Origin: Candidatus Hydrogenedentota bacterium | GTDB lineage: Bacteria > Hydrogenedentota > Hydrogenedentia > Hydrogenedentales > SLHB01 | DNA length: 64,000 nucleotides | Assembly (NCBI GenBank): GCA_045863295.1 | Contig: BTWA01000020.1 | Span: 1-64,000, forward strand | Reading direction: 5' to 3' | Part shown: positions 55,214-64,000 of the stretch, piece by piece | How the letters are laid out: the number at the start of each line of letters is the position of its first letter | How positions within the stretch are numbered: position 1 is the first letter of the stretch | Position numbers and translations under genes: made by a program | Notes under the pieces: model-generated | Told to the model about the DNA's origin: nothing | Seen by the model: only the letters and a program-made list of their open reading frames with translations | Databases searched by the model: none

Positions 55214-55308
55214 CCCAAAAAAAAAAAGACCGGGCGACTGTACGCAATAGGCAGTGGATTCCGAGCGGATGGGTCAGCGCTTGGAACGTGAATTCATGAG
55301 AGGTGCTC

Positions 55309-56709
55309 ATGCCCAAGGCAAGCGATGTCCGGGTAACCGGCGCCACGCTGTACTTCCTTCCGGTGAAAACCCGCGTGCCGCTCAAGTTCGGGACCGAGGC
55401 GCTGACACACGTCACCGTGGCGCGAGTACGGATCCGGGTGTGCGACGCCCAAGGCCGGCAAGCGGATGGCTGGAGCGAGACACCGCTGTCGGTGCAATGG
55501 GTATGGCCCGGCGCGGTCGCCTATGAGACGCGCCACGAAGCCTTGAAATCGTTCTGCCGTATACTCACGAAGGCGTGGCCCGCGTCCGGTCATTGCGGGC
55601 ATCCGCTCGAAGTGGGCCATGCGTTTATTGAGTCGGACCTCACGCGTTTGGCGGCGGAGTTCAACGAGGCCCACCCCGGCCATGAACCAATGCCGCACTT
55701 GGCCGCGCTGGTCTGTTGCTCGCCGTTCGACATTGCCTTGCATGATGCGTACGGAAATCTGCAAGGCCTTCCGGTGTATCAGACGTACAACAGGAATTTC
55801 ATGAGCCTCGATCTCGCGGGATTTCTTACGCCCGAAGAAGGCAGCCATGTGTCGTTTGCCGGCCGCTATCCCAGCGACTATCTCGTCGGCCCGGAATCGA
55901 CAACCCTCCCGGCCTGGCACCTGGTCGGCGGATTGGATCCGCTGGACGAATCGGAATTGACAGGTTCGGAACCGGATGACGGGTATCCTGTGCTTCTGAG
56001 GGATTGGATCGAACGCGACGGATTGCGCTGTCTAAAGGTAAAGTTGCGCGGCAACGACATGCCCTGGGATTACGATCGGCTGGTGCGCGTCGGTGCCATT
56101 GCCGTGGAATGCGGATGCCATTGGATTACCGCTGATTTTAACTGCATCGTGACGGAACCCGCCTATGTAAACGAGATCCTGGATCGACTAATGCTGGATC
56201 ATCCCCGCCTCTACGGCATGATCCTCTACGTCGAACAACCATTTCCATACGACTTGGAAGCGCACCAAATCGATGTGCACAGCGTCTCCGCGCGAAAACC
56301 GTTGTTCATGGATGAAAGCGCCCATGATTGGCGGTTAATCCGGCTGGGCAGAGAGTTGGGTTGGACCGGCGTGGCGTTGAAAACATGCAAGACGCAAACC
56401 GGAGCGATTCTAAGCCTCTGCTGGGCCAAGGCGCACGGCATGACCCTGATGGTGCAGGACCTGACCAATCCGATGATTGCGCAGATTCCGCACGTGCTCC
56501 TCGCCGCGCACGCGGGAACAATCATGGGCGTGGAAACCAACGCGATGCAGTTTTATCCCAACGCCTCATCCGTCGAAGCAGAAGTGCATCCCGGTTTATA
56601 TACCCGGCGCGGCGGCGTTGTGGATTGGTCAACGGTTACCGGGCCGGGATTTGGGTACCGGATTGAGGCAATCCCGCGCATCCTGCCGCCGCCCGATTGC
56701 GAGGCATAA
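55309..56709 (+). CDS. Enolase-superfamily (mandelate racemase/MLE-like) enzyme
   Basis: KVKL, ADFN, YVEQP, MDESAH, ALKTCK, VQDL. Confidence 0.8.
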   Translation: MPKASDVRVTGATLYFLPVKTRVPLKFGTEALTHVTVARVRIRVCDAQGRQADGWSETPLSVQWVWPGAVAYETRHEALKSFCRILTKAWPASGHCGHPLEVGHAFIESDLTRLAAEFNEAHPGHEPMPHLAALVCCSPFDIALHDAYGNLQGLPVYQTYNRNFMSLDLAGFLTPEEGSHVSFAGRYPSDYLVGPESTTLPAWHLVGGLDPLDESELTGSEPDDGYPVLLRDWIERDGLRCLKVKLRGNDMPWDYDRLVRVGAIAVECGCHWITADFNCIVTEPAYVNEILDRLMLDHPRLYGMILYVEQPFPYDLEAHQIDVHSVSARKPLFMDESAHDWRLIRLGRELGWTGVALKTCKTQTGAILSLCWAKAHGMTLMVQDLTNPMIAQIPHVLLAAHAGTIMGVETNAMQFYPNASSVEAEVHPGLYTRRGGVVDWSTVTGPGFGYRIEAIPRILPPPDCEA

Positions 56710-56740
56710 AAAAAGCGGACCCCGCGACGAGGTCCGCTTG
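56708..56740 (-). terminator. Intrinsic terminator between convergent genes
   Basis: Stem AAGCGGACC / GGTCCGCTT with a T7 tail on the minus strand. Confidence 0.8.
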
Positions 56741-56760: not shown

Positions 56761-58959
56761 TCAGGCGACTTTGTCCGCCGCCGGTTCCGCGGGCGTCTCC
56801 GGTTGCTTGCCCACGGCGCCCGGATTGCACTTCTCACACGCCTTCGCGCTCTTGAGCGCCTCAACGCAACATTCGTGCCCGCACGCCGCGCCGCCCGCAA
56901 GCGCCTTGGAGCAGCAACTGTCCGCGTCAAAGAATGCGGCGACTTCGGGTGCCACCGCCGCCGCGGGTTCCGCCGCGGCTTGCTGCGATTTGGGATTGCA
57001 CTTCACGCAGACTTCGCCTTTGGCCGCCGCTTCGACACAGCAAGGATGGTCGCATGTATTGCCTTCCGCGAGGGGCTTGGCACAGCAACTGCCCAGATCG
57101 AACTTGGCAATCAACGCCAGCTTCTTGCCGGCATCCGCATTGCACTTGGCACAGACCTCACCTTTCGCGGCCGCTTCCGCGCAGCAAGGATGGTCGCACG
57201 ACTTGCCCTCGGCTTTGGATTTGCCGCAACAGCCGTCGGCACTGAACAGCGCGGCAAGTTTCGCGGTAACGCCCGCATTGCACTTCGCACATACGGTTCC
57301 CGCCTTGACGGCCGCCAGACAACATTCGTGGCCGCACGCCGTGCCGCCGGCAATGGCTTTGCCGCAGCAGCTCTCCGCGTCCGTGAACAAGGCCACCAAC
57401 TTGGCGGCCATCGCGTTGCACTTGGCGCAGACTTCACCTTTCGCGGCGGCTTCGGCACAGCAGGGATGATCGCACGCTTTGCCGTCAGCCTTGGCCTTGC
57501 CGCAGCAGCCGTCAACCCCGAACAACAACGCCACGGTGGGATTCGCGGGAGCGGCCGCCGGGGTTGCTTCCGGCTTGGCCCCTTGATTCGGATTGCACTT
57601 GGCGCAAGATTCGCCTTTTGCGGCGGCCTCCGCACAGCAAGGGTGGTCACACCACTTGCCTTCAGCCAACGCTTTGGCGCAACAGCCTTCCGCGTCGTAC
57701 TTGGCCACCAACGCCAGTTTTGCCGCGGCGCCCGCGTTGCACTTCTGGCACGCCTCGCCTTTCGCGGCGGCTTCCACGCAGCACGGATGTTCACATGCCT
57801 TGCCCTCGGCCGCGGCCTTGCCGCAGCAGCTTTCGGCGTCGATCAGCAAGGCCACCGGCACGGACGGCTTGGCGGCATCCGCCGGGGCCGCTTCTGGCGC
57901 GGGGGCCGGCGCGGCCTCGGGTGCGGGTGCAGCCTCGGGGGCTGCCGCAACTTGCAGGGCCTGACCCGTGTTGACATCGAGCCCGGGAATGGCGGCGGCC
58001 AATTTCGCGGCGCCCTCAGGCGTCACGCCGCTCTGCCATACGTATAGCTTCTTCAGTTCCTTCAGACCTTCAAGCTGGGCCAGTCCGGCATCGGTTACCG
58101 ACGTGCCGAACAGGTTCAGGTACTCGAGGTGCGGCAGCGCGGCAAGATGCGCCAAGCCCGCGTCGGTAATGGCGGTGCGTTCGAGGTGAAGGCGCGTCAG
58201 ACGCGTCATGCCCGCGATGTTGGCGAGGCCTGCATCGGTCACGCCGGTGCCCGCCAGATTGAGCCACGTGATGTTGGCGGCCATGGGCGCGAGTTGCGCG
58301 AGGCGGTCGTCCTTGACGTCTTGGCCGCCTTGCTGAAAATTCACGGTGATCAACGGGCTCTTCTGATCCAGCGGCAGCGCCAGCGCGCCAAGCGTCTTCG
58401 CGGAGGCCAACGTCTCGGCGGGCAGCGGCGTCACCTCGCCGGCCAATTGCTCCAGAATCTTAAACACTTCCGAGGTGGATTCGGTTTTCGGCGCCATTTT
58501 GACGGCGGAATCCGCCGGGGCCACCTCGCCTTTAGGCTCCTCTACAGGGGCAGCCACGGTGAATGTGCCGAACGATGCGCCCGACTCGATCCATGCCTTA
58601 ATGGTGGCAATCTGTTCGGGAGTCAAGGGATCGCCTTGAGGCGGCATGATGTCCGCATCACCTGCGGGCAGTGAGATGAGTTCAAGCAGAAGACTCTCAT
58701 CCGGCTTGCTCGCAAGTACCACAGGACCGTCTTCGCTGCCTTTCTCGATGGCCTCTTTCGAATCCAGACGCAGAGAAGCCTTTTGCTTCTCCGGCCCGTG
58801 ACAGCCCATGCACCGGGCCTGGAAGATCGGCAAAACTTTCTCGGAAAAGAACTCCGGTCCAACCTCCTCGGCAGTCGCGGCGGGAAGTCCCGCCAAACCC
58901 GCGATCGCAAAGGCGCCAAGAATCAAAACGGTACTGACGTGTGTGCTAAGACGCAGCAT
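56761..58959 (-). CDS. Exported planctomycete-type cytochrome c + LRR + seven Cys/His-rich repeats
   Basis: Signal peptide; VLPIFQARCMGCHG...MPP...IKAWIESGA; LRRs (LNLAGTGVTDAGL etc.); 7x CC-x9-CxHxCC-x9-CxxCN. ATG 58959 after GGGAG. Confidence 0.88.
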   Translation of the reverse strand: MLRLSTHVSTVLILGAFAIAGLAGLPAATAEEVGPEFFSEKVLPIFQARCMGCHGPEKQKASLRLDSKEAIEKGSEDGPVVLASKPDESLLLELISLPAGDADIMPPQGDPLTPEQIATIKAWIESGASFGTFTVAAPVEEPKGEVAPADSAVKMAPKTESTSEVFKILEQLAGEVTPLPAETLASAKTLGALALPLDQKSPLITVNFQQGGQDVKDDRLAQLAPMAANITWLNLAGTGVTDAGLANIAGMTRLTRLHLERTAITDAGLAHLAALPHLEYLNLFGTSVTDAGLAQLEGLKELKKLYVWQSGVTPEGAAKLAAAIPGLDVNTGQALQVAAAPEAAPAPEAAPAPAPEAAPADAAKPSVPVALLIDAESCCGKAAAEGKACEHPCCVEAAAKGEACQKCNAGAAAKLALVAKYDAEGCCAKALAEGKWCDHPCCAEAAAKGESCAKCNPNQGAKPEATPAAAPANPTVALLFGVDGCCGKAKADGKACDHPCCAEAAAKGEVCAKCNAMAAKLVALFTDAESCCGKAIAGGTACGHECCLAAVKAGTVCAKCNAGVTAKLAALFSADGCCGKSKAEGKSCDHPCCAEAAAKGEVCAKCNADAGKKLALIAKFDLGSCCAKPLAEGNTCDHPCCVEAAAKGEVCVKCNPKSQQAAAEPAAAVAPEVAAFFDADSCCSKALAGGAACGHECCVEALKSAKACEKCNPGAVGKQPETPAEPAADKVA
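56820..57850 (-). repeat. Seven intragenic tandem repeats (~46-59 aa units)
   Basis: Recurrent SCCGKA..EGK.CDHPCC.EAAAKGEVC.KCN units, also visible in the DNA. Confidence 0.92.
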
Positions 58960-59082
58960 GGCTACTCCCTTTCCGGCTTTCATTTAGAGGGGTTGCCGGG
59001 ATAGCCCAATCCCAACCAATTCCTGCATTGTGGCACGCCCACGGGCGGCGTGGCAAGCCGGTTGGCCGGAAGGCTGGCCGGC

Positions 59083-60906
59083 CTACTGCATGGACACGCG
59101 TTGTGCGGTGCGGGTGTGCTGCTTTTGAACGGGAACGAGCGGCGGTGAGGACCCCGGGGTGAAATACCGGGCCATGTGCTCGTCAATCTTCGTTGGCACG
59201 GGAAATCCTTCGGTAAACATATCCCTGAGAAAACTGGCATCGGTGTCGCGATGGATCAACGTCCGGTAAAACGCCTCGCGTTTATAGGCGTCCAATGCCG
59301 CGAACTGCGTGCCGTCGGCCAGAGGCGTGAACGCCTCGGGCGCGGTAGCCGCCTCGGCACTGCCAGCAGGGGCGCCCCAGCGAAGCTCGGGCGGATGGTT
59401 GGGGTCAAACGAAAGGTCGTACAGTCGGCGCTCAATCTCCTGCAAGGTCAAGGTCACTTTCTCGCCTTTGGAATTGGTGTATTCAATGGATTTCGAAGCG
59501 AAGATGCGCCGTTTTTCCTGTCGCAATGCATAGGCAAAATCGGCCTGACTGTAAACGCCCTTGCGGGAAAGGCGGTCGAAATTCACCAATTCGGGCCGGC
59601 TCGCGTACCAGTCGATGGCATCGTCGATCCAACTCATCAACTGGAAATACTCGGATCGATAATCCACGTCGAGCGAAGCCGTCGAAAACGAACCCCACCG
59701 GCCCTGTTCGTTGAATACGTTCTGAAAGCGGTTCCCTTCCGGAAACGGGATGGGGCCCTGCGTTTGCACCTCATTCCAACCGGCCTGCACAAATCCCTCG
59801 CGGGTCTTGAACGCCTCGACAATCTGGTCCGCGAATGAATCCAGCATGGCCACCGGATCGATGCTCTCGGCCGTGCGCAGTTTTTCGCGAATATAGGCAT
59901 GAATGCCCTCGGGCTTGCCGGGAAACTGATCCGATTTTCCATTCATCAGCGCTTCGTACACGTCGTATTGTTCGAGCGAATAGCCAAAGGCCTTCATTTC
60001 CTCGTCGGTCATGCGCCGCACACCGGTGACTTTGCCCTCGGCATTCGTTTCCGCATAGGGGAACCGGTACTGACGGAAGCCGCGAAAGCAGCCTGCATAA
60101 GGATTGGCGGCGTTGCTCGATTGGCGCGGAGCAAGCCCCGTCACGGCATTGATGGTGTTGTGGGTGTAAATGTCGCGCGAAACGGCCGTCGTCGCATCCA
60201 GAAAGTACACCTGACCGTAAGGATCCGTATTCCCAAGCACGAGCACGTGCCCATCGTGATAATACATGACGCCCGGCACGAGATACCGGGGGTCAATGGC
60301 AACCGGTACGGTGTCGGAATGCTGCGCGTTTTGAGCGGTCGGTTCCACCCGATAGTTGCCGGTGCAAAAGCCTGTGACCGCGTCGACGAAAAACTGATGC
60401 GTGGACGAATAGTCGAAGCTGCTGGACCAGGTCACAGGCTCGTTCTTGACGGCCGTGCGCAAATCGGTGCCGTCGGTCGACCGCACATACGTGATCATCC
60501 AGGGAAGGCCACGGCGATAAGCGTAATACGAACCCAGCGAAATGGTCAGCTTGCCGCAGTCCAGGATCGTGTGCATCGCATGCATGCTGGCGGGATCGAG
60601 TTGCGGGTTGCTGGGTTCGCCGGCAAACGCGGGGTCCAACAGAAGGTTCATCTCCGGGTCGTTCAGCACGGCCTCGATCTTCGCCAGCCGTTGCTTGGGA
60701 TTGCCGCGCGACTTCACGTGAAAGATGTTCTGTACCCATTTCGAATAGTGCTGAAACTCAGCGGGAGTCCACTGGCGGTAAAGGGGCCAGGCTCCGCGCT
60801 CGGAATGTATCGTGGCCGGGTTCGGATCCTCGGTCCAGGCGGACGTCGTCACAACCAGACAGAGAATCCCAAGTGCAAGACAACTCCGGAGTGGGGATGC
60901 GTTCAC
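59083..60906 (-). CDS. Secreted hypothetical protein, possible papain/NlpC-P60-like Cys-His-Asp domain
   Basis: Signal peptide; ILDCGKL, PGVMYYHDGHVLVL, VYFLDA; C-terminal LSFDPNHPPELRWGA. Confidence 0.7.
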   Translation of the reverse strand: MNASPLRSCLALGILCLVVTTSAWTEDPNPATIHSERGAWPLYRQWTPAEFQHYSKWVQNIFHVKSRGNPKQRLAKIEAVLNDPEMNLLLDPAFAGEPSNPQLDPASMHAMHTILDCGKLTISLGSYYAYRRGLPWMITYVRSTDGTDLRTAVKNEPVTWSSSFDYSSTHQFFVDAVTGFCTGNYRVEPTAQNAQHSDTVPVAIDPRYLVPGVMYYHDGHVLVLGNTDPYGQVYFLDATTAVSRDIYTHNTINAVTGLAPRQSSNAANPYAGCFRGFRQYRFPYAETNAEGKVTGVRRMTDEEMKAFGYSLEQYDVYEALMNGKSDQFPGKPEGIHAYIREKLRTAESIDPVAMLDSFADQIVEAFKTREGFVQAGWNEVQTQGPIPFPEGNRFQNVFNEQGRWGSFSTASLDVDYRSEYFQLMSWIDDAIDWYASRPELVNFDRLSRKGVYSQADFAYALRQEKRRIFASKSIEYTNSKGEKVTLTLQEIERRLYDLSFDPNHPPELRWGAPAGSAEAATAPEAFTPLADGTQFAALDAYKREAFYRTLIHRDTDASFLRDMFTEGFPVPTKIDEHMARYFTPGSSPPLVPVQKQHTRTAQRVSMQ

Positions 60907-61160: not shown

Positions 61161-61736
61161 ATGAACGACACCACGATACAACAGTTTTGCTCAGCCTTTT
61201 TGGCTGTATCGGGTAAGCCGCACCGGGCCTCCACACTGGCGCAAGCGGCGGCGCTCGTCGTGCAACTTGCCGCGCCACTCGCTCCAAAACCCGTGGCGCT
61301 CGCGAACTTGCCCGAAAAATGGATGACCGCCATCAGAGACGCATGCGGCGCGGCGGGGATCGACGTGGTGGCCCCCCCTTGGATTCATGACAATCTACCC
61401 GCAAGGATTGACGATGCGGGGCTCGGGGTGACCGGCATGGCATTCGCCATCGCAGAAACCGGAACACTCGTGGAAATAACCGAGGACGATGCGGACCGGC
61501 TTGTCTCCGCGTTGCCACGCACCCACATCGGGATCGTGGCTGCGGACACCTTGGTGGGTGCATACCGGGACGCCGCTGGGCCATTGCGGCAAGCCCTTGG
61601 CGCGGACACAAAGAAGTGTACGGTGAGTTTCATTTCAGGTCCCAGCCGAACCGGCGACATCGAATTGAAGTTGACGCTGGGCGTGCACGGACCGGAAGTG
61701 GCCCATGCCATCATCCTTGAATCCGATGAACGCTGA
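61161..61736 (+). CDS. lutC: Lactate utilization protein C (LUD domain)
   Basis: GVTGMAFAIAETGTL, RLVSALPRTHI, FISGPSRTGDIE...LGVHGP. Confidence 0.88.
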   Translation: MNDTTIQQFCSAFLAVSGKPHRASTLAQAAALVVQLAAPLAPKPVALANLPEKWMTAIRDACGAAGIDVVAPPWIHDNLPARIDDAGLGVTGMAFAIAETGTLVEITEDDADRLVSALPRTHIGIVAADTLVGAYRDAAGPLRQALGADTKKCTVSFISGPSRTGDIELKLTLGVHGPEVAHAIILESDER

Positions 61737-62251
61737 TGGGAGACCAACGACAGGTGAACACGCAGGAATTGGCGCTTGAGCTGGAGCGATGCACCAACGA
61801 CGTGCTCGCCTTGTTGGCCGCGGCGCCGGACGAGGCCATTTTTCGCAAACCCGGGGATAGCCAATGGTCTGCCGCGGAAGTGGTCGAGCATCTGATCCTG
61901 CTGGAATTCGGCGTATTGCGCATTCTTGGGGGAACCAGCCTGCCGCCCACCCGCGCCCACGATGCGGAAGTCCCCGCCATTCTGGACGCATTGGAAGACA
62001 CCACAAGGACACTCCACGCACCGCCGCCCATCGCGCCAACCGGCCGCTACCAGGACCGGGAAAAGTTGGTGACCGCGTTCAGCGGCGTTCGCGGTAAACT
62101 GCGCTTATGGCTCCCGGATCACGACGTGACGCTGCTCTATCCCGACTTCCGGCACGCCCTGTTCGGCGAGCTCACGGGGTATGAATGGATCTGCTTTGTC
62201 ATCGGCCATACGCGCCGCCACATGCAACAGATGCAACGCGCGATGGCGTGA
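61736..62251 (+). CDS. DinB-family protein
   Basis: KPGDSQWSAAEVVEHL, HALFGELT..EW, HTRRHMQQ; TGATG coupling to lutC. Confidence 0.85.
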   Translation: MGDQRQVNTQELALELERCTNDVLALLAAAPDEAIFRKPGDSQWSAAEVVEHLILLEFGVLRILGGTSLPPTRAHDAEVPAILDALEDTTRTLHAPPPIAPTGRYQDREKLVTAFSGVRGKLRLWLPDHDVTLLYPDFRHALFGELTGYEWICFVIGHTRRHMQQMQRAMA

Positions 62252-62263
62252 AGGAGTGCGCAG

Positions 62264-64000
62264 GTGACCCAGGAACGGTACAAGCGCCTGAACGCACGGA
62301 TTCAGGAAGCGTTGGACGACAGGTCCAAAAGCCGGGCACTGTTGCATTGCATGCAACGAGGACGGGATAACCGCTCCGTCCGGTTGCAGTCGCTGCCCGG
62401 AGGTGCGTCCTTTCGGGGCGAGGTGAAGGGCGTTAAAGAGCGATGCATCGCGGATCAGGAACGGCTGGTCGCCCACTTCACGGAGAATGCGGAGAAACGC
62501 GGCGTCAAGGTCTTTCGCGCGGCTTCCGGGATGCATGCGATTGAATACATGCTGCGTCTGGCGCGATCGCGCGGCGCAAAAACCATCGCCAAGTCCAAGT
62601 CGCTGACCACTGAAGAGATCGAATTAAACCAGCCGCTCACCGACGCGGGCATGCGCGTGGTGGAAACCGATCTGGGCGAACTCATTATTCAACTGGTGGA
62701 TGAAAAGCCCTATCACCTGGTCTTTCCCTCCGTGCACAAAATGGCCCCCGAAGTGGCGGAGATCTTTTCGAAGGCCACCGGTGCGGCAGTCTCTCCGGAC
62801 ATTCCTTCGATCATGAAAGTGGTTCGCACATACTTGCGCCCCATCTTTCTGAGCGCGGACATCGGGCTGACCGGCGCGAATATCGGCATCGCCGAGACCG
62901 GCGGAATCGTTATTGAAACCAACGAAGGCAATGGCCGGCTCGTATCGAGCATCGGTGACTGCCACGTCTGTGTCATGGGGCTGGAGAAGATCGTGGCCAC
63001 GGTCGAAGATGCGTTGCTGATGGTCATGGCCCATCCCGTGAGCGCATCCGGCCAGTTGCCGACAACCTATGTAACGTGGATGCACGGACACTCGCCGCTC
63101 GGCGAAGCAAGCCGCGCTCGCGAGTCCCACATTATTCTTCTGGACAACGGACGAACCGCGATGCGTGACGACCCGGCCATGCGTGAAGCGCTCCATTGCA
63201 TCCGGTGCGGGGCATGCATGAATGTCTGCCCCACGTACGGCGTGGTCGGCGGACACACGTTCGGGTACATCTATCCCGGTCCCATCGGCATCCCGTGGAC
63301 AGCGCAGGTGCACGGCATGGAGAAAGCTGCTGCGTTTGCGCCGCTGTGCATCTCGTGCGGTCTGTGCAAGGAAATCTGTCCAGCGGACATAGACATACCC
63401 ATGATGATCGCGACCGTAAAGCACAGGGACGCCAAGGTAACCCCACATTCCAAACCCGATCGCACCATGATGAAGGCGGACCGGTTCGCCCGGCTGGGGA
63501 GTGTGACGGCCCGTGTTGCCAATTGGATGTTGAAGAATCCGGCGGCTCGCGCGGGCATGGAGGCGATGCTGGGGGTATCCGCGAAGCGCGTCATTCCGCC
63601 GTTTGACCGGACGCCGTTCACCAGGCGATTTCATGCGCGAACAAGACCGGAGGGGCCGTTCCTGCGCCGGGTGGCGTTGTTCGTCGATGTGTATGCCGAG
63701 TACAACGCGCCACACTTGGCAATGAAAGCGGTGTCACTCCTCGAGGCCGCCGGGTGTGAAGTCGTGCTGCCGGATCAACGGCCCAGCGGGTATCCGTTTA
63801 TCGCGTACGGCGATTTGGATCGAGCCCGGGAAACGGCCGAGTACAACGTGGATAGGCTGGCGCCGTTTGTAAAAGATGGATGCGAGATTGTATCCATTGA
63901 GCCGACGGCGGCCTACTGCTTGCACCATTCCTACGCAGCCTTGTTGGCCGGTGACGATAGAGCGCTCCTCCTCGCAAATCACAGCCACGAATTATTTCCT
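62264..64000 (+). CDS. lutB: LutB-like LUD/2x[4Fe-4S] protein fused to a CCG-like domain (runs off the window edge)
   Basis: Hand translation from GTG after AAGGAG: KSKSLTTEEI, VETDLGE, NEGNGR, CIRCGACMNVCP, CISCGLCKEICP, then VALFVD...EPT. Confidence 0.88.
   Translation, partial: MTQERYKRLNARIQEALDDRSKSRALLHCMQRGRDNRSVRLQSLPGGASFRGEVKGVKERCIADQERLVAHFTENAEKRGVKVFRAASGMHAIEYMLRLARSRGAKTIAKSKSLTTEEIELNQPLTDAGMRVVETDLGELIIQLVDEKPYHLVFPSVHKMAPEVAEIFSKATGAAVSPDIPSIMKVVRTYLRPIFLSADIGLTGANIGIAETGGIVIETNEGNGRLVSSIGDCHVCVMGLEKIVATVEDALLMVMAHPVSASGQLPTTYVTWMHGHSPLGEASRARESHIILLDNGRTAMRDDPAMREALHCIRCGACMNVCPTYGVVGGHTFGYIYPGPIGIPWTAQVHGMEKAAAFAPLCISCGLCKEICPADIDIPMMIATVKHRDAKVTPHSKPDRTMMKADRFARLGSVTARVANWMLKNPAARAGMEAMLGVSAKRVIPPFDRTPFTRRFHARTRPEGPFLRRVALFVDVYAEYNAPHLAMKAVSLLEAAGCEVVLPDQRPSGYPFIAYGDLDRARETAEYNVDRLAPFVKDGCEIVSIEPTAAYCLHHSYAALLAGDDRALLLANHSHELFP

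Follow-up and report, generated by a model that had tools for sequence, protein, structure and literature searches.

Seven cysteine-rich repeats, each with one histidine, make up the C-terminal half of an exported cytochrome c encoded in a window of 64,000 nucleotides from a Candidatus Hydrogenedentota bacterium (positions 1 to 64,000 of contig BTWA01000020.1). The question raised by this locus is what such a repeat is, and what it does outside the cytoplasm. The original prediction took the repeats for a periplasmic metallothionein-like array coupled to a haem. From the analysis below we infer both a metal and a different role: with a probability of roughly 40%, the repeat, here called the Cys7His module, is a metal-organised mini-domain and serves its carriers as a reusable appendage, either structural or for docking/tethering.

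The gene and its cytochrome-LRR half

The coding sequence of the exported PSCyt1-LRR-7xCys7His protein occupies 56761..58959 on the minus strand and specifies 732 aa from an ATG at 58959; read from the first ATG, the ORF covers 56761..58983 (-) and 740 aa (P0001), and our residue numbering follows this longer version (ATG 58983). Judged from the sequence, the ATG at 58959 (Met9) is the better start than the upstream in-frame ATG at 58983, since a Shine-Dalgarno-like AGGGAG (58965..58970, minus strand) lies 5 nt ahead of it, whereas 58983 has nothing comparable. A sigma-70-like promoter match, by consensus only (TTGCCA-18-CACAAT with a TG extension, 59027..59056, minus strand), falls inside the 100-bp gap upstream of the gene, and an intrinsic-terminator-like hairpin with a 12-bp stem, 8 G-C pairs and a T-run (56713..56739, minus strand) begins 22 nt past the stop codon. 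A 211-nt metatranscriptome contig (library X19) equals 57754-57964 with 0 differences and could stem from DNA carry-over; in two independent studies of sludge (runs X2 and X3), short contigs agree with parts of the repeat region at 0-1 differences. Sludge, activated sludge and bioreactor are the habitat labels of the sequencing runs in which the gene occurs.

The N-terminal half has the parts that had been predicted for it, namely a signal peptide, a single CMGCH haem domain, an LRR block and a Pro/Ala linker, as judged by Pfam, sequence and AlphaFold. The signal peptide (58870..58959, minus strand) reads as Sec-type, MLRLSTHVSTVLILGAFAIAGLAGLPAATA followed by EE and lacking a twin-arginine motif; in the AlphaFold model this region is a helix (7-29) of low pLDDT. 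It is followed by a PSCyt1 domain, a planctomycete cytochrome c, at aa 58-117 (58633..58812, minus strand), which matches Pfam PF07635 with 49 bits against a cut-off of 22 and covers profile positions 1-59 of 59. The CMGCH haem motif lies within it (aa 58-62; 58798-58812, minus strand), and C58, C61, H62, M113 and P114 are invariant among 57 homologues; from the sequence, Met113 of the Met113-Pro114 pair is the likely sixth haem ligand. A six-frame search of the genome gave 3 Cytochrom_C_asm and 2 DsbD_TM matches, so that the machinery for cytochrome c maturation is present. The leucine-rich repeat block spans aa 237-316 in Pfam (58036..58275, minus strand), where LRR_8 (32.2 bits), LRR_4 (30.8 bits) and LRR_6 (29.4 bits) all exceed their cut-offs; in the AlphaFold model the solenoid shows an alternation of strand and helix from about aa 201 to 340, at pLDDT 93-98. 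A flexible Pro/Ala-rich linker with pLDDT <50 (aa 346-371; 57871..57948, minus strand) then leads to the repeats.

Seven Cys7His modules

The pattern CC.{9}C.H.CC.{9}C..CN matches the protein exactly seven times, starting at aa 386, 434, 493, 539, 585, 633 and 690, with 46-59 aa from module to module. All seven cores are 31 aa long and lie on the minus strand. Five are of type A (C-E/D-H-P-CC): module 1 (aa 386-416, 57736..57828), module 2 (aa 434-464, 57592..57684), module 3 (aa 493-523, 57415..57507), module 5 (aa 585-615, 57139..57231) and module 6 (aa 633-663, 56995..57087). Module 4 (aa 539-569, 57277..57369) and module 7 (aa 690-720, 56824..56916) are of type B (C-G-H-E-CC), and module 4 has module 7 as its nearest copy. 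Of the 51 Cys in the protein, 2 belong to CMGCH and 49 to the modules, which also hold 7 of its 12 His. The pattern did not occur once in 20,000 shuffles of residues 372-740. The predicted seven repeats with 49 Cys and 7 His proved exact in every copy.

The copies are 48-90% identical at the protein level and 58-83% at the DNA level, and at the DNA level Tandem Repeats Finder detects no array across the modules; we therefore regard them as old, diverged copies and not as an assembly artefact. A core devotes 7 of its 31 residues to Cys, a Lys beside Cys is invariant across the seven copies (CCxK, CxKC), and one Trp is the only aromatic residue in all seven cores.

Predicted structure and searches for a known fold

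AlphaFold predicts two short helices per module, each starting at a CC pair and followed by a loop. The pLDDT of a single-module model is 73.6, while modules 1-2 in the full-length model reach 87-95. The modelled helices are 7-8 residues long and span only CCxKxxA and PCCxEAAA, ending before the second Cys of C-x9-C, and the turn between the two halves comprises 4 residues (C-x-H-x-C). Between modules the full-length model has flexible linkers of low confidence. AlphaFold folds the module without metal, as it does zinc fingers. A complex modelled from the LRR block (aa 170-345), a single module and two Zn ions had a score of 0.00 (mark 0.32) and is neutral on binding.

Database searches agree with the earlier view that the repeat is an uncharacterised domain. 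Pfam at E<=10 gave no family for the repeat region (residues 372-740), and for four stand-alone homologues only weak rows, which fall ahead of the module in the N-terminal signal region (aa 1-37); NCBIfam at E<=1 gave nothing for either the repeat region or the stand-alone homologues. A profile search of PDB sequences had 0 matches at E<=10, and Foldseek against the PDB returned only rows at E above 7. VIA-align found no match at Z>=2 among 48,161 chains, a null result from a 51-residue model of pLDDT 74 that falls short of proof of a new fold. Among the open-access papers listed we found no description of a Cys7His repeat in work on PSCyt1, no exported Cys-rich array like these repeats, and no bacterial twin-Cx9C protein. 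We regard the Cys7His domain as probably new, being absent from family databases, solved structures and the literature found.

A family of small secreted proteins and periplasmic tails

The Cys7His repeat is a real, autonomous domain family. A profile search across 1.84 billion representative proteins recovered 286 relatives at E<=1e-3, 62 of them at E<=1e-10, and both stand-alone and fused homologues, which the original prediction proposed to look for, are among them. Where the genome is labelled, the relatives belong to Hydrogenedentota, Planctomycetota and Verrucomicrobiota. Many relatives are secreted proteins or lipoproteins of 60-130 aa; in others the module ends diverse periplasmic proteins. 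Among the best 150 of the 286 relatives, 82 of 137 new proteins have <=140 aa; of the matches listed, 64 of these 82 small relatives have an N-terminal hydrophobic, signal-like stretch, 10 a lipobox and only 4 an RR motif near the N-terminus. Of the four RR-bearing sequences P0104 alone reads like a Tat consensus. In the ESM Atlas only 'hypothetical protein' clusters were found, with Verrucomicrobiota commonest, and the clusters of five small homologues are unnamed or 'hypothetical protein', apart from one member auto-named 'opacity protein-like surface antigen'.

Of 483 distinct copies, 469 retain all seven Cys together with the His, a figure that is somewhat circular in that the 483 windows were chosen for matches at >=6 of the 8 ligand positions; the His is present in 475. 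In one copy the His is replaced by Met. Many non-ligand positions are conserved too. CxxC is followed by N in 414 copies, G in 16, L in 14, Q in 10, A in 10, S in 8, K in 5 and H in 2. Close homologues carry 1 to 7 copies of the module; the protein described here has seven exact copies of the CC-x9-C-x-H-x-CC-x9-C-x2-C core that marks the family, in an extracytoplasmic protein, and is encoded by the only module-bearing gene of its genome.

Fusion partners and gene neighbourhood

Among the matches listed, the 55 longer relatives are fused to PSCyt1 (23), to LRRs only (9), to DUF1579 (6) and to 3-keto-disaccharide hydrolase (2), while ThuA, PQQ, AhpC/TSA, TctC, cyclophilin and FGE-sulfatase occur once each and 9 have no Pfam partner family. 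P0175 is a YHS/TRASH fusion below the Pfam cut-off, and P0082 and P0120 have putative HMA-like 'GMT' ends. In fusion proteins of Hydrogenedentota the module lies between two haem-bearing parts. Two further roles were considered and set aside: up to 7 tandem copies, internal positions in fusions and the stand-alone forms speak against a C-terminal sorting signal, and an LRR C-terminal cap does not suit a module that a disordered linker keeps apart from the LRR and that is also found without LRRs.

In 31 of 50 related haem-bearing loci PSD1 is fused or adjacent, or DUF1501 is adjacent. The window's genome has 24 PSD1 matches elsewhere, none on the gene's own contig, and the gene adjoins neither PSD1 nor DUF1501. 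Housekeeping genes surround the stand-alone genes (ybaB-recR and dxs, M16 peptidases and rpsA, NAD synthase), and neither stand-alone nor haem-bearing loci have metal sensor, efflux, resistance or homeostasis genes as conserved neighbours. The upstream gene of 607 aa was found by tblastn in 0 of 80 related loci, and we therefore claim no operon link with it. A third neighbour 'family' that all-against-all clustering gave in 16 loci has no Pfam match and runs antisense to long genes; we discarded it as shadow ORFs.

Proposed metal ligation and role of the module

Six-frame searches of the window's genome, a 96% complete draft, with four Pfam models for disulfide oxidation had no match for DsbB, VKOR, DsbA or Thioredoxin_4, and its two DsbD_TM matches represent a DsbD-type reductant pathway. 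DsbB and VKOR are both absent from three of five other carrier genomes; VKOR is present in the remaining two, and modules could be oxidised in such hosts.

Metal ligation is the most economical explanation of the module, because the His is as strict as the Cys, the number of Cys is odd, and the genome shows no DsbA, DsbB or VKOR. A His conserved like Cys is expected to be a ligand and not part of a disulfide scaffold, while an odd number of Cys cannot be completely paired in disulfides; the latter argument had been made before on the Cys count alone, and it holds, now joined by the other two. The cofactor of a Sec-exported periplasmic protein is acquired after export. Since the signals of the family are mostly Sec-type, the same should apply here, which leaves room for metal ions and renders Fe-S clusters improbable. 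An Fe-S domain (ferredoxin, or a CCG domain of the HdrB type) was rejected, with no Pfam match, no twin arginine in the protein's own signal and RR in only 4 of 82 small relatives. The habitat labels, on the other hand, suggest exposure to oxygen, where free thiols are at risk, and this counts against a metal-loaded module. In our view the metal-binding repeat of the original prediction therefore stands as a predicted property, favoured by the His (475 of 483 copies), the odd Cys and the missing Dsb/VKOR enzymes, whereas nothing points to its coupling to the haem as a dedicated buffer.

The gene product is, by its sequence, a Sec-exported monohaem c-type cytochrome (PSCyt1) with an LRR scaffold and a C-terminal half of seven modules. 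Each module would most likely fold round metal, either at two Zn-type tetrahedral sites, one Cys4 and one Cys3His, or in one small metal-thiolate cluster; the two CC pairs would sit at the N-termini of the two short helices, with the metal sites closed by the 'knuckles' CxH and CxxC that come after a conserved Gly. The thiols should stay available because the organism shows no periplasmic disulfide oxidase. Flexible Ala/Pro linkers would space the metal-loaded beads. The same module ends many unrelated periplasmic proteins of PVC bacteria and Hydrogenedentota and, in relatives, links the cytochrome-LRR unit to PSCyt2-PSD1/DUF1501 systems.

As to role, housekeeping neighbours and many unrelated partners lead us to favour a putative role in structure or docking over that of a dedicated metallothionein, and the conserved non-ligand residues and the PSD1/DUF1501 loci favour such a role over buffering as well. 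A bolder view, which we entertain only tentatively and consider somewhat unlikely, is that the modules form a new class of Sec-exported metal-thiolate cluster, seven of which beside a haem would act as a metal/electron reservoir for PSCyt/PSD1/DUF1501 systems; no modular cluster unit of this kind, metallothionein-like or redox-active, would have been known from the periplasm before.

Alternative explanations

A periplasmic metallothionein-like buffer or store would bind Zn, Cd or Cu(I) reversibly, about 14 or more ions per protein; the haem domain would be incidental or redox-sensing, and the modules would protect or supply the periplasm. Dense Cys (7/31) flanked by Lys with nearly no aromatics is what such a protein might look like, a copy number of 1 to 7 among close homologues resembles a capacity trait, and small stand-alone secreted or lipoprotein forms, rare YHS and possibly HMA fusions, the copy with His replaced by Met and the lack of a Dsb oxidase in the genome all point the same way. 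Against this stand strongly conserved non-ligand residues and an ordered predicted fold, both unlike typical metallothioneins, and no Pfam match links the module to bacterial metallothioneins or any other family. A module attached to many unrelated enzymes, housekeeping neighbours among which metal sensor, efflux and resistance genes are absent, and a single module-bearing gene in the genome are further points against it. Weakened in this way, and also by the stand-alone forms when these are taken as part of so wide a distribution, a dedicated buffer appears unlikely to us.

Distinctly unlikely, in our judgement, is a metal-free disulfide-knotted bead, in which three disulfides and one free or inter-module Cys would make each module part of a stiff stalk or adhesive array. 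Cys-rich repeats are frequent in exported proteins, and the extracytoplasmic location, VKOR in two of the five other carrier genomes and two C-x9-C spacings that recall twin-Cx9C disulfide hairpins all suit this explanation. Seven Cys per module is nonetheless an odd number, and a residue other than Cys, the His, is conserved just as strictly. Neither DsbB nor VKOR was found in the window's genome or in three of the five carriers, the former also showing no DsbA or Thioredoxin_4 and possessing a DsbD-type reductant pathway, and the helices stop before the second Cys with a four-residue loop between them, unlike a CHCH hairpin.

A redox relay, in which metal-thiolate or thiol/disulfide centres would hand on electrons, or hold them, between the haem of PSCyt1 and partners, is more doubtful still. 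The partners would be haems or enzymes (PSCyt2-PSD1, peroxiredoxin, PQQ dehydrogenase, FGE), and PSCyt1 in 23 of the 55 longer relatives among the matches listed, the position between two haem-bearing parts in Hydrogenedentota and the AhpC/TSA, PQQ and FGE-sulfatase fusions fit such a scheme. The partner list, however, mirrors families that are abundant in PVC periplasms, so that it carries little signal; flexible, low-confidence linkers do not make a packed wire, non-redox partners (cyclophilin, TctC, LRR only) and stand-alone forms exist, and no known electron-transfer fold was matched.

Finally, we give hardly any credence to the idea, raised in the original prediction, that non-canonical covalent haem at the terminal CxxCN of each module makes the protein a disguised multihaem cytochrome: the CxxC spacing is that of CxxCH, and 2 of 483 copies and some half-modules do end in CxxCH, but the following position otherwise varies (N, G, L, Q, A, S, K) and offers no conserved axial ligand, the conserved His, part of C-x-H-x-CC, is found 15 residues further upstream, and no cytochrome family model matches the module region, so that a c-type haem site at CxxCN is not supported.

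Significance and comparison with known systems

A compact and strictly conserved domain that spans three phyla by record labels, is represented by hundreds of protein clusters, and exists both as a tiny secreted protein of its own and as a tail on many periplasmic enzymes, merits attention. If it binds metal, it would be a new extracytoplasmic metal-binding fold, in hosts apparently without the usual disulfide-forming machinery, and would bear on periplasmic Zn/Cu and thiol chemistry in such bacteria. The PSCyt/PSD1/DUF1501 genes are among the most expanded function-unknown families in Planctomycetes and Verrucomicrobia, and the module offers an experimental handle on them; its length of 31-45 aa suits direct synthesis, metal titration and NMR.

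Bacterial metallothioneins (SmtA/BmtA) bind several metal ions through Cys and His; the module resembles them in its ligand set of Cys and His, in Lys by Cys, few aromatics and small size, and a multi-ion capacity is plausible for it. It differs in being exported, where SmtA/BmtA are cytosolic, in being fused to enzymes, and in its rigid spacing, conserved non-ligands and predicted helices; with no Pfam relation to them at E<=10 over residues 372-740, we do not place it in the SmtA/BmtA family. In Csp1, a Tat-exported single four-helix bundle that stores copper in the periplasm, we see a parallel to an exported, Cys-rich, Ala-rich helical protein proposed to hold many metal ions, though the 31-aa modules stand behind mostly Sec-type signals and had no match in fold or sequence.

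In Cox17, a protein of the mitochondrial intermembrane space, a CC pair binds Cu(I). Like Cox17 and other twin-Cx9C proteins, the module has vicinal CC by C-x9-C and two C-x9-C per unit, in a topologically equivalent compartment; unlike theirs, its predicted helices, of 7-8 residues, stop short of the second Cys, and it carries a further CxxC as well as an invariant His. The twin-Cx9C/CHCH fold was rejected on the short helices, the 4-residue turn and the lack of a Pfam match. The Gal4-type Zn2Cys6 domain, a eukaryotic nuclear DNA-binding domain with CX2CX6C spacing, six Cys and a two-metal centre, is an analogy in architecture only: both are pseudo-symmetric, each half being a short helix from a Cys motif followed by a Cys loop, but the halves of the module are CC-x9-C-x-H and CC-x9-C-x2-C, it sits outside the cytoplasm and its metal is putative.

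The closest ties are to the PSCyt/PSD systems, whose function is given as unknown in the literature (PMC5615132). The passages concerned name only CBM and protein-protein interaction domains as partners, with no Cys7His module among them (PMC5615132). The window's gene stands apart from all 24 PSD1 matches of its genome, whereas related module loci are linked to these systems in 31 of 50 cases, as fusions with or neighbours of PSCyt1-PSCyt2-PSD1, or neighbours of DUF1501. The systems comprise the PSCyt1-bearing 'planctomycete-specific' cytochrome c proteins and the PSCyt2-PSD1 (DUF1549/DUF1553) and DUF1501 gene pairs of PVC bacteria, and the tie of our protein to them is its N-terminal half, a bona fide PSCyt1 domain and then LRRs.

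A cytochrome c-LRR protein ending in seven Cys7His modules

The minus-strand open reading frame at 56761..58983 encodes P0001, a protein of 740 residues when counted from the first ATG, as we number it here. The ATG at 58959, which the original prediction had taken as the start, is the better supported of the two, with AGGGAG 5 nt upstream and nothing similar before 58983. Every particular of the protein layout proposed there (signal peptide, CMGCH, LRR block, Pro/Ala linker and seven repeats with 49 Cys and 7 His) was confirmed. The signal peptide reads as Sec-type without a twin arginine (...AGLPAATA, then EE); PSCyt1, the planctomycete cytochrome c domain, lies at residues 58-117 (Pfam, 49 bits against a cut-off of 22) with the CMGCH inside it; Pfam LRR families match residues 237-316, and a Pro/Ala linker (pLDDT below 50) covers residues 346-371. 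The N-terminal half is an ordinary PSCyt1-LRR protein. The seven modules have the exact pattern CC-x9-C-x-H-x-CC-x9-C-x2-C-N and start at residues 386, 434, 493, 539, 585, 633 and 690; they hold 49 of the 51 Cys and 7 of the 12 His of P0001, and the pattern appeared in none of 20,000 shuffles of the C-terminal 369 residues. Pairwise identity between the copies is 48-90% for protein and 58-83% for DNA, with two subtypes (modules 1, 2, 3, 5 and 6 vs 4 and 7), and no DNA-level tandem array was reported over the seven copies.

A sigma-70-like promoter match (59027-59056) in the 100-bp upstream gap and a 12-bp G+C-rich hairpin with a T-run 3' of the stop codon (56713-56739), both consensus matches only, are in keeping with a gene that has a promoter and terminator to itself. 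In two other sludge studies, contigs show 0-1 differences to parts of the repeat region. The sequencing runs that contain at least half of the gene's sampled words belong to several studies and carry the labels bioreactor, activated sludge or sludge metagenome; the best-matching run may itself be the source. One contig from a metatranscriptome overlaps the gene but does not prove that it is transcribed.

An undescribed domain family

The view that the repeat is not a characterised domain was borne out. The repeat region has no match in Pfam even at E≤10 and none in NCBIfam, and a profile of the seven copies found nothing among PDB sequences at E≤10; with an AlphaFold model of one copy, Foldseek gave no fold match (best E 7.8), and fold comparison against 48,161 chains gave none at Z≥2. 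Literature searches of open-access papers and bioRxiv did not find a description of the module. The module belongs to none of the families against which it was tested (bacterial metallothionein, CHCH, c-type haem site and Fe-S domains).

Against 1.84 billion cluster representatives the same profile matched 286 proteins at E≤1e-3, 62 at E≤1e-10 and 13 at E≤1e-30, while a word-indexed search with residues 372-740 returned 65 homologues with one to seven copies each; 60 of these contain the strict motif at least once, and the other five have one copy in a looser pattern only. When every protein retrieved was pooled with the locus ORFs, 483 different 31-residue segments matched at six or more of the eight ligand positions. 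All seven Cys and the His are kept in 469 of these, the His in 475 (otherwise R in 5, K in 2 and M in 1) and the final Asn in 414, figures that are somewhat circular from the selection rule. Several non-ligand positions are also conserved, giving the consensus CCxKAxAxGKxCxHPCCVxAxKxGKVCEKCN. We conclude that the Cys7His module is an autonomous, conserved and undescribed domain, and rate it as a family with familiar chemistry, found in an unusual compartment and an unusual range of hosts. It is a genuine family with clear limits that lends itself to direct tests, and it is attached to one of the large, still unexplained gene systems found in PVC bacteria; what we infer is its function.

Distribution of the module

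Among the 150 profile matches listed, 137 proteins had not been seen before. The 82 that are at most 140 residues long mostly have just one or two modules between a signal peptide and a Lys/Glu-rich tail; a hydrophobic N-terminal stretch precedes the first CC in 64, a lipobox is present in 10 and an RR pair in 4, only one of which reads like a Tat consensus by eye. The 55 longer relatives carry, by Pfam, PSCyt1 (23, mostly with LRR, some with DUF2231 or PSCyt2-PSD1), LRR only (9), DUF1579 (6), 3-keto-disaccharide hydrolase (2), no Pfam family (9), or, in a single protein each, ThuA, PQQ propeller, AhpC/TSA, TctC, cyclophilin and FGE-sulfatase; most fusion proteins have the module at their very C-terminal end. 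One small module protein has a weak YHS/TRASH match, below cut-off. Two module proteins, P0082 and P0120, end abruptly at '...V(S/T)GMT', the start of the HMA signature GMTCxxC, with a stop codon at the first-Cys position; either a selenocysteine encoded by TGA or a contig cut short could account for this. Four small secreted proteins (P0090, P0108, P0149 and P0159) begin with a lone half-module, CC-x9-C-x2-C followed by H or N, which in three of them ends in CxxCH, formally a haem-binding motif. Such half-modules would be consistent with a full module that arose when a half was duplicated.

A scan of one genome per species gave 80 loci, assigned to phyla by record title: 40 Planctomycetota (largely Phycisphaerae), 18 Hydrogenedentota, 13 Verrucomicrobiota and 6 unlabelled. 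The remaining three, all MAGs labelled Nitrospiraceae, Klebsiella or Proteobacteria, may be mis-binned; L067 ('Klebsiella sp.') and L070 ('Proteobacteria bacterium') are probably mis-binned contigs and not a wider host range. The small module gene in both has the tail ...CEKCKGTNEEKK, as does L075, a Pedosphaera-labelled MAG (Verrucomicrobiota), and a NAD synthase gene adjoins the module gene in L067 and L075. The nearest homologues carry the source names Hydrogenedentes or Hydrogenedentota. Within this phylum the module occurs in 34 of 135 genomes (23 of the 86 high-quality ones) and is patchy by family, with 17 of 53 in the window's own family and 11 of 15 in another; in the window's genome this is the only module-bearing gene.

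Gene context

A module-bearing ORF was recovered in 77 of the 80 loci; of these ORFs, 50 contain CxxCH, 16 stand alone as small genes and 11 belong to other types. Linkage to PSCyt2-PSD1/DUF1501 is seen in 31 of the 50 haem-bearing loci. Among the 77, eight have an in-frame PSCyt1-PSCyt2-PSD1 fusion, 20 a separate PSD1 gene and 25 a DUF1501 gene within 5 kb; PSD1 often lies 28-118 bp downstream, and DUF1501 starts 13 bp downstream of several fusion genes. The fusions (L008, L009, L010, L014, L015, L017, L021 and L025; proteins of about 1200-1800 residues; seven labelled Hydrogenedentota or unlabelled, one Nitrospiraceae) are of the Rosetta-stone type, with a partner family of unknown function. 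The PSD1/DUF1501 association is found in Hydrogenedentota-labelled and Phycisphaerae-labelled loci alike, and many Phycisphaerae relatives begin with a DUF2231 membrane domain; we therefore take the module cytochrome to be functionally linked to PSCyt2-PSD1/DUF1501. A passage in PMC5615132 states that 'nothing is known' of the function of the PSCyt/PSD system. The window's gene belongs to the unlinked minority: its genome has 24 PSD1 matches, none of them on this contig.

This link is absent from all 16 stand-alone genes. Those in Opitutae-type genomes lie between ybaB-recR and dxs, next to M16 peptidases and rpsA, or next to NAD synthase, a housekeeping context, and no metal sensor, efflux or resistance genes were seen next to them.

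In the window, the upstream neighbour (59083-60906, minus strand) encodes an exported hypothetical protein of 607 residues with a signal-peptide-like N-terminus, no Pfam or NCBIfam match and no homologue at any of the 80 loci. In the ESM Atlas the clusters it falls into are named 'hypothetical protein' and come most often from Hydrogenedentota; some of its structural neighbours belong to clusters that have FGE-sulfatase or NlpC/P60 domains in another part of the protein. The convergent enolase-superfamily (MR_MLE_C) gene downstream (55303-56709, plus strand) recurs at one of the 80 loci, where it adjoins the module gene of a close relative (69% identity). Divergent from the exported-protein gene pair, a LUD-domain (LutC-like) gene, a DinB_2 gene and a long ORF occupy 61161-64000 on the plus strand; the long ORF has Cys motifs typical of Fe-S oxidoreductases and looks LutB-like by eye.

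Predicted structure and proposed metal binding

AlphaFold models one module (45 aligned sequences, mean pLDDT 73.6) as two short helices starting from the CC pairs (CCGKSKA and PCCAEAAA), each followed by a loop with CxH or CxxC, in agreement with the internal pseudo-symmetry read from the repeat earlier. Neither helix reaches the second Cys of its C-x9-C, and only four residues join the halves, so the module is not a CHCH hairpin of the Cox17 kind. When the whole protein is modelled (57 sequences, mean pLDDT 80.5), the pLDDT is 93-98 in the cytochrome and LRR parts, 87-95 in modules 1-2, 56-89 in modules 3-7 and below 50 in the linkers; with a pTM of 0.40 the model gives no confident inter-domain arrangement. 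The predicted picture is that of 'beads on a string', each bead with two pseudo-symmetric halves.

Four lines favour a metal in these beads. The His is conserved as strictly as the Cys, as would be expected of a ligand. With seven Cys per module full pairing is impossible, an odd number that the original prediction had also counted against pure intra-repeat disulfides. Six-frame Pfam searches of the window's genome (6.3 Mb, 96% complete, 2% contamination) did not find DsbB, VKOR, DsbA or Thioredoxin_4, models that in 14 control genomes matched in 6, 3, 8 and 9, respectively; the organism exports many cytochromes yet may lack a canonical disulfide oxidase. Its reductive side is represented by two DsbD_TM and three cytochrome c assembly matches. 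VKOR is present in two of five other carrier genomes and DsbB in none, and therefore the module works both in hosts that have an oxidase and in hosts that lack one. Finally, the signals of module proteins are mostly Sec-type, and Sec export excludes cofactors that need cytoplasmic insertion, leaving metal ions, haem or disulfides. In line with the earlier suggestion of two sites or a cluster per repeat, and with metal binding itself something we infer, the eight ligands in their two pseudo-symmetric halves would suit either a pair of tetrahedral sites (Cys4 and Cys3His) or a small cluster with bridging ligands. The default guess would be Zn(II) for such a Cys/His set, with Cu(I) or Cd(II) as possible alternatives. 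Lys beside Cys offsets thiolate charge in metallothioneins, and would do so here.

Role of the array

We favour the array as a series of metal-binding structural or docking beads, with a probability of roughly 40%. This is supported by the conserved non-ligand residues and ordered predicted fold, by attachment to a dozen unrelated periplasmic domain types, by the LRR/PSCyt1 context and PSCyt2-PSD1/DUF1501 linkage in two phyla (by record labels), and by the absence of metal-homeostasis genes among the neighbours seen. The dedicated metal buffer or store first proposed would share the same metal chemistry and differ in physiology; Cys density, a copy number of 1 to 7 among close homologues and the free-standing small forms speak for it, whereas the ordered fold, the many partners and the missing metal-homeostasis neighbours make it only about half as probable. 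A metal-free disulfide bead is a little less probable again, and a redox relay is improbable. Haem attachment at CxxCN, the alternative originally offered, we rate as very unlikely because the residue after CxxC is variable. The module would work like a small metal-cluster domain, such as a zinc finger or a Gal4-type binuclear cluster, or like a metallothionein, a likeness drawn by analogy only.
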